Assembly: GCA_016217925.1 (NCBI GenBank)
Contig: JACRFK010000004.1
Location: forward strand, 133,869-197,868
Reading direction: 5' to 3'
Length of the DNA stretch: 64,000 nucleotides
Source: Candidatus Kaiserbacteria bacterium
Lineage (GTDB): Bacteria > Patescibacteriota > Minisyncoccia > Phycocordibacterales > UBA2100
Positions within the stretch are counted from its first letter, which is position 1. Each line of letters begins with the position of its first letter. This document shows, piece by piece, positions 5,881 through 62,256 of the stretch. A program made the translations under genes and the position numbers. Under the pieces are notes generated by a model. It made no database searches. It was given only the letters and a program-made list of their open reading frames with translations, and was not told the DNA's origin.

Positions 5881-6807
5881 TCAATCCATCAGGGGCTTTT
5901 TCACGTCCACGTTGGTCGTCTGATACACCCAGTTTATCCAGTTGGAATAGAAGACCTGGCCGTTCGCCCCCCAATTTTTGAGCGGCGTTTTCCGGGGGTC
6001 ATCGCCCGGGAAGTAATTCTTCGGAAAGTCTATCGGCAGGCCTAGCGATTTGTCCCTGAGATATTCGCCTGCTATATCATCGCGATCATATTCAGGATGT
6101 CCTTGTATGTAGATTTCTCGCCCTTTTCGTCCGGAAATCAAGTGCAATCCTGCGTCTTTGCTCTTAATGAGAATCTCGAAGCCGCGGAGGCCCAACAGAT
6201 CTTCTTCCCTGATTCCCCGTTGTCGCGCGTGGGGTACTAATATCTCGTCGTCCATTCCTTCTACGAACGGCGAACCCGAAGCGTGGTTGACCTGATGCCT
6301 GAAGACGCCGAACTTTTTCCTCTTATATGCATGTGGGCGGATGCCGTGACGGTGATACAGCATGGCGTGGGCGGCCCAGCAGCAGTAGACGGTCGATGTC
6401 ACTTGCTCGCGTGCCCAGTCGAAAAGGTCGGTGAGTTCTTTCCAAAAGAAGATTTCCTCGAATACGTGGTGCTCGAGATTTCCTCCGGTGACTATGAGTC
6501 CATCGAGGCCGCTCTTTTTTACGTCACGTAGCGACTTATAGAATGCATCGAAGTGGTCCTGTTTGGACGCCGATTTATGTTCATCGAAACGAATGAACGT
6601 CGGTTTTATCTGAAGAGGTGTATTTGCAAGGGGACGTAAGAACTGCACCTCTGTCCGCTCGAGGGTGGCGCTAGGCATGAGATTCAAGATCCCGATTTCC
6701 AGCGGACGAATGTCTTGCTTCTCTGCGCGCTCGGTAGATATCTCGGCCACCTGCTCGCGCTTGAGGTATGCGAATGCCGGGAGTTTCTTGTTGATGATGA
6801 GTGCCAT
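5881..6807 (-). CDS. metA: homoserine O-acyltransferase (MetA/HTS family)
   Basis: LPAFAYLKREQV...IRPLEIGILNLMP...GLIVTGG aligns with the MetA N-terminus; start refined to MALIINKK. Confidence 0.8.
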   Translation of the reverse strand: MALIINKKLPAFAYLKREQVAEISTERAEKQDIRPLEIGILNLMPSATLERTEVQFLRPLANTPLQIKPTFIRFDEHKSASKQDHFDAFYKSLRDVKKSGLDGLIVTGGNLEHHVFEEIFFWKELTDLFDWAREQVTSTVYCCWAAHAMLYHRHGIRPHAYKRKKFGVFRHQVNHASGSPFVEGMDDEILVPHARQRGIREEDLLGLRGFEILIKSKDAGLHLISGRKGREIYIQGHPEYDRDDIAGEYLRDKSLGLPIDFPKNYFPGDDPRKTPLKNWGANGQVFYSNWINWVYQTTNVDVKKPLMD

Positions 6808-6939: not shown

Positions 6940-7281
6940 ATGATCCCATTCCCGTTCCAAAAAGGGATGCCGTTCAGAGAAATGATCTGCAAGGAGAAGG
7001 ACCAGATGGACCGGCTCATCATCTTTCTCTGTCGCAACGGGCTTGATCCCTTTAAGGCAGCCAAAAAGATCAATACTGCGGTCGGCCGCACGATCTGCGA
7101 AGTGCATACTGGGAGCCTCGTTGAGTACGAGGATGTCGGTTCCCCGAAGCACGTCAACGTCAACGGCATTCATAAGTTTGCCCTGGTTAAGATTGTAGTC
7201 GTACGGGTCAAGTATGCGGACGGCTACGAAGGCTACACTTGGCGAACTCAAACCGAGGTGCAACCGAACCGAAAACAGTAA
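6940..7281 (+). CDS. hypothetical protein
   Basis: ATG with GGAGG 5 nt upstream; terminator hairpin directly after the stop; an antisense ORF of equal length was rejected. Confidence 0.45.
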   Translation: MIPFPFQKGMPFREMICKEKDQMDRLIIFLCRNGLDPFKAAKKINTAVGRTICEVHTGSLVEYEDVGSPKHVNVNGIHKFALVKIVVVRVKYADGYEGYTWRTQTEVQPNRKQ

Positions 7282-7294
7282 TTGATCGTTTCAA

Positions 7295-7321
7295 GTGCGC
7301 CCTCACGGGGGCGCATTTTGA
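7295..7321 (+). terminator. rho-independent terminator
   Basis: TGCGCCCtcacGGGGCGCA followed by TTTTG. Confidence 0.55.
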
Positions 7322-7331
7322 TTCGGTGCAT

Positions 7332-7415
7332 ATGTTGCACAACGCAGATTATCCAACACAAGGTGTCGGATAATCTCAAAATATTGTGCAACGTAAATAC
7401 GTCGCACAATATTTT
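7332..7415. promoter_or_regulatory. cluster of TTGTGCAAC motifs plus a 13-bp inverted repeat upstream of the xer gene (candidate operator or dif-like site)
   Basis: GTTGCACAA 7334-7342 (rev), TTGTGCAAC 7384-7392, TCGCACAAT 7402-7410 (rev); inverted repeat GATTATCCAACAC-aagg-TGTCGGATAATC 7347-7375. Confidence 0.35.
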
Positions 7416-7431
7416 CTGATACAATTCAGTG

Positions 7432-7512
7432 ATGGCGGCAGATTTGAAGGGGCTTAAGACGCAATTTCTCCCCGCCGGAGGCGGGTCCTCCTCCGGAGGA
7501 GAATACTTATGA
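7432..7512 (+). CDS. upstream ORF (26 aa) mimicking the Xer N-terminus; its TGA stop overlaps the xer ATG (ATGA)
   Basis: [26 protein letters not shown]; residues [10 protein letters not shown] match Xer residues 3-12 (9/10) with 8 of 10 codons synonymously different. Confidence 0.4.
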
Positions 7513-9686
7513 AAGACTTAAAGGGTTTGAAAACCGAGTTTCTGGAGTATATAGAAATTGAAAAAGGGCGGAGCGTGAAGACGGTCGAGAATTATGACCG
7601 CTATCTCATGCGGTTCCTCAATTTTGCAAAGGTGAAGTCCCCTGCCCAGATAACCGAGCAGATGGTGCGTGAATTCCGTATCACACTCAATCGTTCCGCA
7701 GGGGTTACAGGCACGATGAAGAAGAATACACAAAATTATCACCTCATCGCGCTGCGCGCGTTCCTCAAGTTCCTCCGCAAGCGTGATATCGAATCGCTCA
7801 ATCCCGAGCGTATCGAACTTGCCAAGGTCGGTGGACGCGATTTGGATCTCATTACCGCCGATGAGCTCAACAGGATCATGCGTGCGCCCACGGGTGACGA
7901 GCTAGGGGGTCTGCGCGACCGCGCGATCCTCGAACTTTTGTTTTCTACCGGTTTGCGCGTCTCGGAACTCTGCAATTTGAATCAGGATATTGACCTCTCT
8001 CGCGATGAGTTCTCGGTGCGCGGCAAAGGAGAAAAGGTGCGCGTGGTATTTCTCTCGGCGTCCGCGAAAAAAGCGGTGGCCGAATATTTGAAAAAGCGCG
8101 GTGATATGAGCAAGGCGTTGTTCGTCAGTTACGGCAAAGGCGGCACGAGCAAGGGAAAAGATTTACCGCGCATCACTCCGCGCTCCGTCGAGCGATTGGT
8201 AAAACAGTACGCGATAAAAGCGGGCATCACGCGCAAAGTGACGCCGCATGTCATTCGTCACTGTCTCCACGCGGAAACGCGAATAATGGGAAACCCTTCG
8301 CTCACAACGGCGAAGGAGTTGTTCGCATCCGAAAAGCAAAAGAAGGTCCTTGGATTTGATTGGAAAAACAATCGTCTCATGCGGGCCTCGATTAAGAGAC
8401 GTGAAACACATTCCACACAACGCCTGATTTCTTTATGGGCGGACGGCCGGGAAATTTGCTGCACCCCGTACCACAGCTTTTTCACCCCGAGCGTTAACGG
8501 TATTGTGCCGATACAAGCACAAGACCTGAAAGTTGGGGATTATGTAGCGGGAGTTCGCAGTGTTCAATGGTCCCAGGGAAGTAGACCCGAAAGCGAATCC
8601 ACGGACTTTTGGAGATTGCTTGGATATATTCTTGGTGATGGAACGCTTAGTGAGGCACGGCGAGGTATTATCATAAATGATAAAGAACGTCGCCACATTG
8701 ACCTATACAACGAAATTGTTTTTCGTGTGACGGGCAGGTGCGGAACCGTCACTAAATTGTCAGGCGGCAATGGGTACGCGCTCAATATCTACAATGTTGG
8801 TTTTCTGAAAAAGGTACGAGCTCTTGGAATTACACAGCGTTCAAAAGAACGGCGTGTCCCCGCGGGCCTGTTTCAGGAGTCCGAGACCGCGATCCGAGCC
8901 TTTCTTGCAGGCTATTACGATGCCGAAGGAAATAACGGCAGGATTAAGATGTTCTCCGCAAGTAAGGAACTTCTGAAAGACATACAAATGTTGCTGCTCC
9001 GGTTGTCTATCGAGAGCATACTGCTCCGCCGAGAGCGGCGAGTGAAACTTCCCCAAGGTCGGGTCATTGACCACGTCATATACATACTGCATGTGACGTA
9101 TCCACCAAGCGAGAATCGCTTTGTGGAACTCATACCAACATTCAAACAACGCATACGACCGAAAAAAGAGTGGCAGCGACTCGATATTGCATTACCTACG
9201 CAACCACTGATTCGAGGACTCTACCCCCTTTTGCTTGCCAAGAGGGGTTTCATCCATTGGCTCGGTAACCGTTATGGCATACGGTACCTGAAACGTTATA
9301 CAAGAATATGTACAACACCGCTGCTGCTCTCTGTGTTTCTTAAGGCCTGCAAAGAAAAAAGAATTCGAAATCCATTTATCAAGCAACTCGAGGTTCTCAA
9401 CCGACTCGATTCGATTCGATGGCTCCGAGTGAAGAAGCTGGAGATGGTCGGCGGTGTATCGAAAGTTTACGATTTCACGATAGAACCAACGCACAATTTC
9501 ATCACAGATGGTTTTATCTCGCACAACTCATTCGCGACTGACCTACTCGAAAATGGTGCCGATCTGCGTAGCGTGCAAGCGCTCCTCGGCCACGCCAACA
9601 TCGCAACGACCCAAGTCTACACGCACGTGACCGACAAACACCTCCGCGAAGTCCATCAGGCATTTCACGGCAAACGCCGCAAATAA
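7509..9686 (+). CDS. XerC/XerD-family tyrosine recombinase containing an in-frame intein
   Basis: N-terminal SAM-like domain; ...TPHVIRH then a 422-aa insertion then [34 protein letters not shown] (R-H box and catalytic Tyr region). Confidence 0.85.
8262..9527 (+). mobile_element. intein with LAGLIDADG homing-endonuclease domain inside the xer gene
   Basis: starts with Cys right after HVIRH; ends with His-Asn before Ser+1 (SFAT); block B TPYH; LAGLIDADG motifs [11 protein letters not shown] and [11 protein letters not shown]; C-terminal blocks [12 protein letters not shown]...ISHN. Confidence 0.8.
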
Positions 9687-59946: not shown

Positions 59947-60013
59947 TCTTGCATTTCTTCGAATTTCCGTTACATTACTGAGACGCGCACAGCGCGTTTT
60001 TGTTTAAATCACT

Positions 60014-60118
60014 ATGGCACGGGATTACCCACTCGAAAAAGTCCGCAACCCCGCAGGAAAGCGCTATGCACTTCCGACGGGGCATGCTTCGGTAGCTAAC
60101 TTCGCATTAAATATATGA
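60014..60118 (+). CDS. upstream ORF (34 aa) mimicking the EF-G N-terminus; its TGA overlaps the fusA ATG (ATGA)
   Basis: [34 protein letters not shown]; 11 of its first 12 residues are identical to EF-G, with all nine compared codons synonymously different. Confidence 0.4.
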
Positions 60119-62256
60119 GTAGAGATTACCCGTTAGAGAAGGTGAGAAATTTTGGGATAGTAGCGCACGTGGATGCTGGCAAGACGACCACATCCGAGCG
60201 TATTTTGTATTACACGGGCGAGAGCCACAAAATCGGCGAAGTACACGAGGGCAACACGGTGACCGACTGGATGGAACAGGAGCGCGAGCGCGGCATCACC
60301 ATCACCGCCGCCGCCATTACTTGTTTCTGGAATCCTTCGTACATGGGCACCGACCTCTCGGCGAAAGTGCGCTTCAACATTATTGATACCCCCGGACACA
60401 TCGACTTCACTTCCGAAGTGAAGCGTTCCATGCGTGTGCTCGATGGCGCGGTCGTCGTCTTCGACGGCGTCGCCGGTGTCGAGCCGCAATCGGAGACCAA
60501 TTGGCGCTATGCCGAAGAAGCCAACGTGCCGCGCATCTGCTACATCAACAAACTCGACCGCACGGGCGCGTCATTCGAAAAGTCATACGCCTCTATTCTC
60601 GACCGCCTTTCCACGAAAGCCGTGCGATTCCAAATCCCCATCGGACTCGAAGAAAAATTCGAGGGCATCATTGATTTGCTTTCCATGAAGGCGTATCACT
60701 TCGAAGGCGAAATGGGAAAGAACGTCGTCGCCGGAGACATCCCCGCAAACATGATGGACGAGGCCAAGAAATATCGTCACGAACTCGTCGAACGCATCGT
60801 TGAAAATGACGATGCGGTCATGGCGGACTTCTTGGACGGCAAAGAAATTCCGCTCGACGTCCTGAAGTCGACGCTCCGCAAGGGCGTTATCGCGAATAAG
60901 ATTTTTCCCGTACTCACGGGCAGCTCTCTCAAGAACAAAGGCGTGCAGCTCGTCCTCGACGCGGTTGTCGATTATCTCCCGTCACCGAAAGACATGCCGG
61001 AATCAAAAGGAGTCAACACAGATACAGGCGCGGAGGAAACGCGTCCCGCATCCGATGAAGCACCATTTGCTGCGCTCGTTTTCAAAATTCAGACAGACCC
61101 GTTCGTCGGACAGCTCTCGTTCTTCCGCGTCTATTCGGGTACCTTTACCGCGGGCGACACAGTCTACAATTCCGCCAACAATAAGAAAGAGCGCGTCGGA
61201 CGCATCGTGCGCTTGCAGGCGGATAAGCGCGAGGACGTGAAAGAGGTCTACGCAGGCGAAATCGCCGCCGCGGTCGGCATGAAAGAAGTGAAAATCGGAC
61301 ACACACTCTGTGATGTAGCGCACCCCATCGCGCTCGAATCCATCGTCTTCCCGGAGCCCGTCGTCTCGATGCGCATTGAGCCCAACACAAAAGCCGACCA
61401 GGAAAAAATGGGTATGGCGCTTTCAAAGCTTTCTGACGAAGACCCGACCTTCCGCATCAAGTCGGACCCCGAGACGATGGAAACTATCGTATCGGGAATG
61501 GGTGAGCTCCACTTGGAAATTATCGTCGACCGCATGAAGCGCGAATTCGGCGTGCAGGCGACGACCGGCAAGCCGCAAGTCGCATACCGCGAGACCATTC
61601 AGGGTACAGCGGATGTTGAATACAAACACATCAAGCAGACGGGCGGTCGCGGTCAGTATGGCCATGTGAAAATCCGCGTGAAGCCGCTTGAGCCGGTAGA
61701 AGAAGGCAAGAAGGTCAAGAACAATGTAGAGCGCGACGACCATTTCGAGTTCATCAACAACATCAAAGGAGGCGTCATCCCGCAGGAATACATCCAGCCG
61801 GTGAAGAAGGGTCTCATCGAGGCGATGGAGCGCGGCATTCAAGCAGGATTCCCCGTTGTCGATATTTCCGTCGAGCTCTACGACGGCTCGTACCACGATG
61901 TGGACTCATCCGAAATTGCGTTCAAGCTCGCCGCCATCAACGCAATGCAGGAGGCGATGCAGAAGGCGAAGCCCGTCATCCTCGAACCGATAATGAAATT
62001 GGAGGTCGTCGTCCCGGAGAAATTCATGGGCGACGTGACGGGTATGATAAACAGCAAACGTGGCGCCATCGAGGCGATGGGCGAGCGCGGTCAGGCGCGC
62101 GTCATCACCGCGAAAGTTCCGCTTTCAGAGCTTTTCGGCTTTACCACTCAGCTCCGAAGTTTGACGGAGGGAAGAGGAGTACCGAACTTGGAGTTCTCGC
62201 ACTACGCAGTCGTACCGAAGACCGCAGCAGACGCTGTCATCGCAAGCAGGAAGTAA
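60115..62256 (+). CDS. fusA: translation elongation factor G
   Basis: G domain [21 protein letters not shown]; domains II-V; 713 aa. Confidence 0.95.

Follow-up and report, generated by a model that had tools for sequence, protein, structure and literature searches.

Why should a gene be preceded by a near-copy of its own first codons that spells almost the same residues with different triplets? The question is raised by the xer gene in a 64,000-nucleotide (nt) stretch of a Candidatus Kaiserbacteria genome (assembly GCA_016217925.1, contig JACRFK010000004.1, positions 133,869 to 197,868), referred to as the window. As an earlier note on this DNA had described, an upstream open reading frame (uORF) of 26 codons runs from ATG 7432 to TGA 7510–7512, begins 77 nt upstream of xer and ends in an ATGA overlap with its start. 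We consider it fairly probable that this uORF is the displaced start of a leaderless xer gene, left as a scar when a mobile cassette of the homing type replaced the terminus of the gene.

A diverged duplicate of the xer start

The copies compared are positions 7432–7470, now displaced, and 7509–7544, contiguous with the gene body. Residues 4–13 of the uORF agree with Xer residues 3–12 at 9 of 10 positions, with 67% of the nucleotides and 2 of the 10 codons identical. The eight differing codons, previously described as synonymous variants, do all differ at the third position; in the pairs CTT/TTG and CAA/GAG the first position has changed as well. The segment added at xer (7471–7544) opens with the two hairpins, which are followed by 8 nt, a new ATG and 12 codons in recoded form.

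We compared every ORF of the window of at least 100 amino acids with its own 300-nt upstream region. Convincing duplications of a gene terminus were found only at xer and at fusA, encoding the elongation factor EF-G, and the pattern is therefore not due to chance. In both genes nucleotide divergence far exceeds amino acid divergence (63–67% nucleotide and 90–100% amino acid identity, with 2 of 10 codons identical). The xer leader is identical in an independent assembly (L001; Logan SRR12113407) and is thus not an assembly artifact.

Folding confirmed that the intervening palindromes, CCCGCCGGAGGCGGG (7471–7485) and TCCTCCTCCGGAGGA (7486–7501), both form 6-bp hairpins. The Shine–Dalgarno (SD) sequence GGAGGAG (7495–7501) is composed of the 3′ arm of hairpin 2 and the following base and lies 7 nt ahead of the xer ATG, in agreement with the earlier proposal that a palindrome supplies the SD. 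Whole-leader folding energies did not stand out from those of shuffled sequences (z = +0.8 and +0.6 for the window xer and fusA leaders); stability alone is therefore no evidence, and the support for the structure comes from covariation across copies. A search of the window with the Rfam covariance models, the only such search covering the fusA leader, matched only tRNAs at the gathering score, and at E ≤ 1 the region 7250–7650 gave just two chance-level eukaryotic or archaeal matches. A strict consensus scan for sigma-70 promoters found no full –35/–10 match.

Some conceivable origins of the duplication were rejected directly: a diversity-generating retroelement, as the differences are not A-specific, and a simple tandem duplication of the leader and N-terminus, as the spacer is unlike both the promoter region and codons 13–35. 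The window xer also carries an intein with a LAGLIDADG domain at 8260–9480, which by our reading follows ...VTPHVIRH inside the catalytic region; it is a second, unrelated selfish element in the same gene. The xer of L065 is of similar length (714 amino acids) and probably has an intein, whereas those of L006, L020 and L030 (~304 amino acids) have none. As these three nevertheless have the insertion described below, the intein was rejected as a cause of the duplication.

The upstream copy as the native start

To place the two copies in context, we used 80 xer orthologs from a scan of reference genomes, comprising metagenome-assembled genomes of Candidatus Kaiserbacteria, Adlerbacteria and other Paceibacterota. 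In 74 of the 80, xer opens at a sequence of the upstream type, ATG GCN GCN GAY CTN AAR ... The uORF, whose conservation the earlier note had proposed to check in related genomes, is absent from about 75. Among the 74 native loci, a TANNNT box ends 3–9 nt before the start in 64 and exactly 6 nt before it in 46, against 6% at random positions; a –10-like box sits 6–7 nt ahead of the start in 57, and an SD-like motif is found in only 4. Given the position of the –10-like box and the near absence of the SD, the native xer genes are apparently leaderless, as judged in silico.

The upstream copy in the window is preceded by the same promoter- and operator-like boxes, with TACAAT 6 nt ahead of ATG 7432, and continues with 13 native codons; on these grounds it is the original xer 5′ end, and the operator-like boxes (Table 1) mark the native promoter region. 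The same 13-mer (ATATTGTGCGACG) is found in one to three copies 5′ of xer in most of the 80 relatives and looks like a conserved operator or a recombinase site, either of them putative. Beyond the hairpins the uORF reads GAA TAC TT, compared with GAA TAC ATC in native codons 14–16, such that the upstream copy reads as a native gene start that holds the insert and is truncated 8 nt past it.

Nucleotide identities point in the same direction. The upstream copy of the window is 0.80 identical to the 5′ end of L003 and the downstream copy 0.60; the same values were obtained for the two copies of L065 against its sister L067. Across comparisons with native starts, the upstream copy of the window was the nearer one in 53 and the downstream copy in 17. 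The displaced copy thus groups with the relatives, with moderate support from short segments (30 nt). LKTQFL is retained in the upstream xer copies through many synonymous changes. Codons 2–19 of the recoded 5′ ends have a G+C content at third positions (GC3) of 0.28–0.44, against 0.48–0.73 in the gene bodies (window, L006, L020, L030 and L065), and from about codon 20 on the window xer again resembles close relatives such as L012. The earlier idea of two diverged alleles joined is in this respect supported, but its polarity is reversed: by the promoter, the identity to relatives and the starts of 74 of the 80 orthologs, it is the upstream copy that is native and not imported.

Insertions of this type are found at five xer loci, the window, L006, L020, L030 and L065. 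In an Xer tree built without the duplicated residues, they fall into at least four clades, each with an insertion-free sister. In L006 the insert interrupts codon 19 instead of following codon 13, and a different frame runs through the hairpins (ARRRRVRLWRKKV; …EYIEIARRRRVRLWRKKV and stop), but the stop of the uORF again forms ATGA with the new start; there, too, native sequence resumes past the insert, AAAAAG corresponding to codons 19–21. The stem of hairpin 1 varies among the xer loci in a compensatory manner (CCCGCC/GGCGGG, CCGGCC/GGCCGG and CCAGCC/GGCTGG). None of the 74 native xer loci has a duplication without a hairpin or nuclease insert.

A dispersed 30-nt double-hairpin repeat

The hairpins belong to a repeat family. 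Using the conserved core AGGCNGGTCCGCCNNNGGCGGA as a pattern, we found matches in at least 120 metagenome contigs (contig GC 0.31–0.70, median 0.44 among the matches listed); a rough estimate of the matches expected by chance is ~30, for a collection size that was assumed and not measured. The left arm of hairpin 1 was outside the pattern and is nevertheless fully complementary in 112 of the 127 copies listed, with the variable pair being C–G in 59 and A–T in 54. The repeat thus occurs in many copies at unrelated loci and genomes and shows compensatory stem changes, as expected of a dispersed structured element. The palindromes described by the earlier note are real and fold as hairpins; their dispersed nature had been missed.

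The unit is exactly 30 nt, or 10 codons, long. Of the 127 copies listed, 79 lie in an ORF of at least 150 amino acids that reads through them, 35 of these as SAxGGPAxG[GW] and 16, in the opposite orientation, as PAxG[GW]SAxGG. The Pro-Ala-Gly junction that had been pointed out in the uORF is present and represents just the first three codons of the repeat in its commonest forward-orientation frame, PAxG[GW]SAxGG. The hairpin repeats are abundant, and their sites include intergenic DNA. The left flank of the unit is often rich in T and the right flank in A, and no consistent target-site duplication was established.

Several further observations concern the family. In four of the copies listed (L119, L200, L096 and L156) the unit directly follows an ATG, which suggests a preference for gene starts or tolerance there; L119 reads M-PAQGGSASGG-KIYIGTDHAGY, RpiB-like by eye. 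The entire 1260-nt contig L115 contains three units in a tandem array interleaved with a AAACCTGAGTT[TA]G satellite. A match to the hairpin pattern in L014, which lies inside an ORF (exonuclease III going by the translation), was dismissed as due to chance. Scanning the window and the 80 loci for GC hairpins in tandem in a generic way was dropped as too noisy.

fusA as a second case

The earlier note had reported the same architecture at fusA, and this was confirmed. A uORF at 60014–60118 repeats 10 of 10 residues of EF-G (copies 60014–60049 and 60115–60150) with 2 of 10 codons identical and ends in ATGA on the functional start. The EF-G N-terminus is nearly invariant in the clade, and the perfect repeat is therefore uninformative about origin. 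The nucleotides are more telling: the upstream copy is 0.83 identical to the native starts of L204, L207 and L208 and 0.63 to its own functional copy, and the functional 5′ end (codons 2–20) is 0.70–0.77 identical to the relatives compared with 0.79–0.87 for codons 21–80, a test on gene bodies weakened by indels in L202 and L209.

The sample consisted of nine loci, the window and the DNA of eight relatives (L202–L209), with intact starts in L204, L205, L207 and L209. L202 has 20 native codons, a different double hairpin, TAAtATG and a full restart. L203 retains MARD (4 codons) and a hairpin, followed by two serial ATGA overlaps (MARDPVKKR and stop, MTLSRDKLPKLKRL and stop, fusA). In L206, MSR (3 codons) is followed by a small hairpin, a stop, an 84-amino acid ORF of the GIY-YIG nuclease family, flanked on both sides by a perfect 19-nt inverted repeat, and a complete fusA start. 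L208 contains at 1022–1204 a 60-amino acid ORF that has no similarity to EF-G and whose stop forms ATGA with the start of fusA; it may represent either what is left of an earlier, decayed insertion or a small gene unrelated to it. The fusA gene end has thus been struck at least four times, at different codons and by different inserts, one of them still with a nuclease gene.

The L202 hairpin recurs with 100% identity over 34–35 nt in L021 and L022, at unrelated sites just past stop codons. Given this recurrence across three Kaiserbacteria genomes, it represents a second dispersed family (…TGAGAACCCTCGGTTCTCA… CACGGGAAAACTACAGTTTTCCCGACCCCTTTCG; L202 1398–1500, L021 5473–5506, L022 4213–4247).

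The upstream region of fusA in Kaiserbacteria (window 59960–60013; L202–L209) has a conserved layout with CTACATTAC, a GC hairpin with a T-run and TTTAAAT 3–4 nt ahead of the ATG. In the window and several relatives, not including L205, fusA is detached from rpsL-rpsG. A look-up of the exact EF-G sequence of the window returned no match, and residue 2 (Ser vs. Ala) failed as a marker of insertion-type fusA, L207 being MS- yet intact.

Table 1. Coordinates of the features at the two loci of the window
Feature	Position	Strand	Basis or comparison
Conserved operator-like boxes 5′ of xer, inverted pair: ATATTGTGCAACG (7381–7393) and CGTCGCACAATAT (7400–7412)	7381–7412	+	Also 5′ of xer in most of the 80 relatives
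–10 box TACAAT, 6 nt ahead of ATG 7432; putative leaderless promoter	7420–7425	+	Native-locus comparison
Displaced native xer 5′ end, codons 1–13, now start of the uORF	7432–7470	+	Matches relatives' start MAADLK.LKTQFLEY
30-nt double-hairpin repeat, one copy, in frame after codon 13	7471–7500	+	Fold; repeat family
Hairpin 1, CCCGCC-GGA-GGCGGG	7471–7485	+	6-bp stem in fold
Hairpin 2, TCCTCC-TCC-GGAGGA	7486–7500	+	6-bp stem in fold
GAATACTT: displaced native copy resumed (codons 14–16, E-Y-L/I), doubling as SD-to-ATG spacer	7501–7508	+	Comparison with native loci
ATGA: uORF stop TGA (7510–7512) overlapping xer ATG (7509–7511)	7509–7512	+	Sequence; present in all five xer insertion loci
Replacement xer 5′ end, recoded, rich in A and T at third positions, codons 1′–19′	7509–7565	+	GC3 0.39 vs. 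0.65 in gene body
Functional xer ORF, 725 amino acids; tyrosine recombinase split by intein with LAGLIDADG domain	7509–9686	+	Pfam Phage_int_SAM_1/4, Phage_integrase, Intein_splicing, LAGLIDADG_3
–10-like TTTAAAT, 4 nt ahead of native fusA ATG 60014	60003–60009	+	Promoter architecture kept in fusA relatives
Displaced native fusA 5′ end, codons 1–12	60014–60049	+	Identity to native starts
48-nt GC-rich hairpin insert, stem CCCCG..GGAA / TTCC..CGGGG (~60049–60082), sequence unrelated to the xer unit	60050–60097	+	Fold
AACTTCG (native codons 12–14 resumed), AT-rich spacer with TTAAAT, ATGA overlap (60115–60118)	60098–60118	+	Sequence
Functional fusA ORF, 713 amino acids, recoded start AGT AGA GAT TAC CCG TTA GAG AAG GTG AGA AAT	60115–62256	+	Sequence

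A link to small GIY-YIG nucleases

In the 1.41 Mb examined we found six small ORFs of the M.Y.VYIL type, of which five sit 16–30 nt downstream of a unit (of the 127 units listed). All five unit-adjacent ORFs (80–85 amino acids) match the catalytic domain of GIY-YIG nucleases, PF01541, with Pfam E-values of 1e-15 to 1e-18. At tRNA genes the full unit reads in this order: a displaced 5′ fragment of 11–27 nt, the double hairpin, the GIY-YIG ORF, its stop, 4–5 nt and the complete tRNA. Such full units are present at tRNA-Asn in L082 (displaced fragment of 21–27 nt), at tRNA-Ser(GGA) in L085 (fragment GGAGAGATGGC) and at tRNA-Ser(GCT) in L191 (fragment GGAGAGGTGGCT). An endonuclease ORF thus lies between the two copies at these three tRNA loci and at the fusA of L206, but not in the window, and the layout of the window xer is that of the tRNA loci minus the nuclease ORF.

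Mirror-image cases affect gene ends. The 3′ end of the SOD gene in L162 runs ...YQNRRPEYIDAWWKVLKLL and stop, the unit, then NKRPDYIAAWWNVLKLL and stop; that of the GrpE gene in L194 runs ...YRLHGKTIRPSKVKVSK and stop, the unit, then YKLHNKVIRPSKVKVGK and stop. These 3′-end duplicates have 59–73% nucleotide and 76% amino acid identity. In all four protein cases the total GC of the functional copy is below that of the displaced copy (0.40/0.43, 0.40/0.53, 0.37/0.43 and 0.31/0.39, functional/displaced). As SOD and GrpE are affected at their 3′ ends, selection on translation initiation cannot account for the lower GC there.

In L018, an insertion-free Kaiserbacteria relative, a small GIY-YIG gene (6546–6746) lies ~3 kb downstream of xer and matches the unit-associated nucleases in tblastn with E-values of 1e-14 to 1e-16; the family therefore occurs in the Kaiserbacteria clade. 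On the minus strand of L106 (~2370–2817), two tRNA-Leu-like copies come after an intact tRNA-Leu(UAA), each with a unit in the anticodon loop (CTT, unit, AAAA); they are probably disrupted copies beside the restored gene.

Expression across the insert

Stop/start overlaps recur among the insertion loci. All five xer cases carry ATGA, in two different uORF frames, and so does the window fusA; L203 has two such overlaps in series, and L202 reads TAAtATG. In native xer genes codon 2 starts with G in 65 of the 74 cases and in all insertion-type starts with A; the overlapping TGA exists because codon 2 changed from GCN to a codon starting with A. The proposal of the earlier note that ATGA implies translational coupling is consistent with these data, and the conservation of the overlap strengthens it. 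From anatomy and conservation, the SD in the hairpin and the ATGA are best read as serving to keep an interrupted leaderless gene expressed.

Other regulatory schemes were considered and rejected. An attenuator of the erm/cat type would need the 3′ arm of hairpin 1 to pair alternatively with the 5′ arm of hairpin 2 and so free the SD on stalling. We found no such pairing: the hairpins abut with no loop between them, the central position is mismatched and even a loop of the minimal 3 nt is ruled out sterically. Together with the stem-loops, the GGA codon recalls the programmed bypassing of T4 gene 60, but neither bypassing nor frameshifting fits a downstream copy with its own ATG and complete N-terminus and a uORF that ends in a stop.

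A model of terminus replacement and its alternatives

The explanation that we favor is a cassette family whose full-length members would carry an 80- to 85-amino acid GIY-YIG gene beside the hairpins and reside in the termini of conserved genes, flanked by the displaced terminus on one side and a complete functional terminus on the other. The xer and fusA loci of the window would be nuclease-less derivatives, with the loss of the nuclease ORF leaving a hairpin scar; at xer, the cassette after codon 13 would comprise the 30-nt double hairpin, the 8-nt spacer, the new ATG and recoded codons 1–12 (to ~19). To spread, a GIY-YIG enzyme acting in cis or in trans would cut an empty allele near the gene end, and a cassette-bearing allele would serve as the template for repair of the break. 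The first codons of the recipient would pair with the displaced copy of the donor and stay upstream, while the hairpins and the recoded terminus of the donor are copied in and the gene body of the recipient is rejoined. Such repair accounts for a native-looking upstream copy with a signature of purifying selection, an outlying downstream copy, a native body and a patchy phylogeny. At present, transcription and initiation would still take place at the old leaderless ATG 7432; the ribosome would translate the 26-codon remnant through both hairpins, the second of which otherwise sequesters GGAGGAG, stop at the UGA of AUGA and reinitiate on xer. Nuclease activity, homing, leaderless transcription and reinitiation are parts of the model that we infer.

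A number of observations weigh against this explanation. The 64-kb window contains no GIY-YIG match, and there is none between the copies (30 + 8 nt at xer, 65 nt at fusA), so that action in trans or a past loss must be assumed; moreover, the unit-linked GIY-YIG proteins consist of the catalytic domain only (80–85 amino acids), without an evident DNA-binding domain. Recoded xer copies are 0.69–0.78 alike across loci and the gene bodies 0.66–0.82; being no more alike than the bodies, the copies show no recent common donor. Both copies at a locus share a residue rare among natives (G in the window, N in L065), which hints at a local origin or later adaptation. At fusA, the mosaic signal is modest, only ~0.10 in identity over 57 nt, and the insert in the window has no second copy among the sequences examined and no SD; its AT-rich spacer possibly contains a promoter of its own. 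L202 comes from a frameshift-prone assembly. The fusA of L206 lacks a stop/start overlap and must therefore start independently, possibly from a promoter in the AT-rich spacer. Finally, the model leaves unexplained how the first cassette for each gene originated.

Some of the same data would be expected if the first ~16 codons had been duplicated locally in tandem, a hairpin had landed in the dispensable upstream copy and the functional copy had diverged in place under selection for AT-rich, unstructured sequence near the reinitiation site, with only sufficiently diverged repeats escaping deletion. The shared rare residues fit such a history, the divergence of the recoded copies fits old evolution in place, and richness in A and T at third positions is expected near start sites. 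We nevertheless regard a local duplication as unlikely. The synonymous sites are saturated, at both xer and fusA, yet the upstream copy remains close to the functional starts of relatives and keeps LKTQFL, unlike a long-dead copy; none of the native xer loci has the duplication by itself; the lower GC of the functional copy extends to the 3′ ends of the SOD and GrpE genes, beyond the reach of selection on initiation; and a tie between the duplication and a mobile element is given by the complete tRNA-gene units and by the GIY-YIG cassette at the fusA of L206. Still less credit is due to a one-off illegitimate recombination or horizontal replacement of the start, with the hairpins incidental and landing later in a neutral spacer. 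The abundance of the repeats at many sites, intergenic ones included, and the missing nuclease gene in the window agree with it, but duplication and insert occur together in every case (5/5 xer loci, 4/4 fusA loci, two 3′-end cases and three or more tRNA genes), two genes 52 kb apart in one genome show several independent junctions, and in every instance the displaced copy is on one side of the insert and the functional copy on the other, with a copy boundary within 2–11 nt.

The earlier note had also offered protein-level selection on both copies, as in a regulatory uORF whose peptide has to mimic the downstream N-terminus. LKTQFL is indeed conserved upstream despite synonymous differences, and the frame is open to the ATGA overlap in every xer insertion locus. 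We nonetheless give this explanation very little credence: the uORF is missing not only from nearly all xer relatives but also from 4 of the 9 fusA loci, the native stretch that is kept differs in length, from 3 up to 20 codons (3, 4, 12, 13, 18 and 20, down to MSR in L206 and MARD in L203), the hairpin part is in another frame in L006, and tRNA genes as well as the SOD and GrpE genes, the latter two at their 3′ ends, show the same architecture although no upstream peptide is made there. The displaced start left by a mobile cassette thus remains the explanation that we prefer.

Relation to known systems

Short, GC-rich, dispersed mobile repeats are known as double-hairpin elements (DHEs) and GC clusters of fungal mitochondria and as Rickettsia palindromic elements (RPEs); they form one or two hairpins and can sit in coding sequence, RPEs being translated in frame. 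The 30-nt unit is similar in behavior, with no relationship in sequence to be expected. It differs in being read mostly in two Gly/Ala/Ser/Pro-rich frames (51 of the 79 ORF copies listed) and in its link to GIY-YIG genes and recoded duplicated termini. As a more distant parallel, prophages and islands, such as phage 21 and e14 in the icd gene of Escherichia coli and elements with tRNA-targeting integrases, bring a diverged gene end and displace the original, with differences that are largely synonymous. They measure kilobases, encode an integrase and usually affect 3′ ends, whereas here there is no integrase, the insert is 30–300 nt and 5′ ends are struck. Termination–reinitiation coupling at AUGA overlaps is well known, and so are leaderless short uORFs in mycobacteria. 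In the window, likewise, the stop overlaps the start, the SD lies inside the upstream ORF, sequestered in a hairpin to be opened by a ribosome in transit, and the uORF is apparently leaderless; unlike in those systems, the uORF would be a by-product of start displacement, a truncated copy of the gene behind it and not an evolved sensor.

In bacteria of the candidate phyla radiation (CPR), GIY-YIG ORFs have been described in rRNA-gene insertions that belong to neither of the intron groups I and II and whose homing was doubted (Tsurumaki et al. 2024; PMC11270868). The bacterial group and the nuclease family are the same; those insertions concern rRNA genes only, with no hairpin repeat or terminal duplication reported (PMC11270868), whereas the targets here are protein-coding and tRNA termini. 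The closest known kind is the replacement of gene termini by mobile endonuclease elements in fungal mitochondria, although the window loci lack an endonuclease ORF between the copies and it is their relatives that have one. In the mitochondrial gene hybrids of Glomus (atp6, atp9, cox2 and nad3) and Allomyces macrogynus (atp6), mobile endonuclease ORFs bring a foreign C-terminus and leave the native one behind; for the Glomus atp6 hybrid, identities are 63.5% at the nucleotide and 91% at the amino acid level, and the native remnant is like that of close relatives (PMC3630166). Shared features are an element in the end of a conserved gene, divergence in nucleotides but not in amino acids (here 59–73% and 76–100% identity), a displaced native remnant, a patchy distribution and nucleases of the LAGLIDADG or GIY-YIG type. 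The differences are the location in a bacterial (Patescibacteria) chromosome, the 5′ position of the window cases, where the remnant keeps promoter and start and becomes a uORF, inserts as small as 30 nt and without an ORF, the involvement of tRNA genes and the stop/start overlaps. Our literature search found no description of this 30-nt repeat, of terminal duplications in CPR protein genes or of leaderless genes or relay uORFs in Patescibacteria.

Implications

Extending these findings beyond the window, we tentatively propose, with slightly less than even confidence, that Patescibacteria hold an undescribed class of mobile elements: small GIY-YIG genes with hairpin ends, together with abundant 30-nt nuclease-less derivatives that often lie in frame in proteins, homing into the termini of conserved genes (EF-G, Xer, SOD, GrpE and tRNAs) along with a recoded terminus and turning the old leaderless start into a ribosome-relay uORF. 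Should the proposal be wrong, the displacement of a gene start through insertion of a repeat would still stand as a well-documented case. Should it hold, the first or last 10–20 codons of core markers such as EF-G may stem from another lineage, calling for care in the annotation and phylogenetics of Patescibacteria, and Gly/Ala/Ser/Pro insertions of 10 residues can reflect selfish DNA in place of an adaptive feature of the protein. The insertion loci would constitute a test bed, provided by nature, in which leaderless initiation and subsequent termination–reinitiation can be compared between independent lineages with single or serial AUGA overlaps. The widespread but obscure GIY-YIG proteins that consist of a catalytic domain only would be linked to a mobile life cycle of invasion, nuclease loss and hairpin scar, in tiny genomes that, rRNA insertions aside, are generally taken to contain little mobile DNA. 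The elements would then be a bacterial-chromosome counterpart of the mitochondrial mobile-ORF hybrids and a general source of in-frame insertions and mosaic gene ends.

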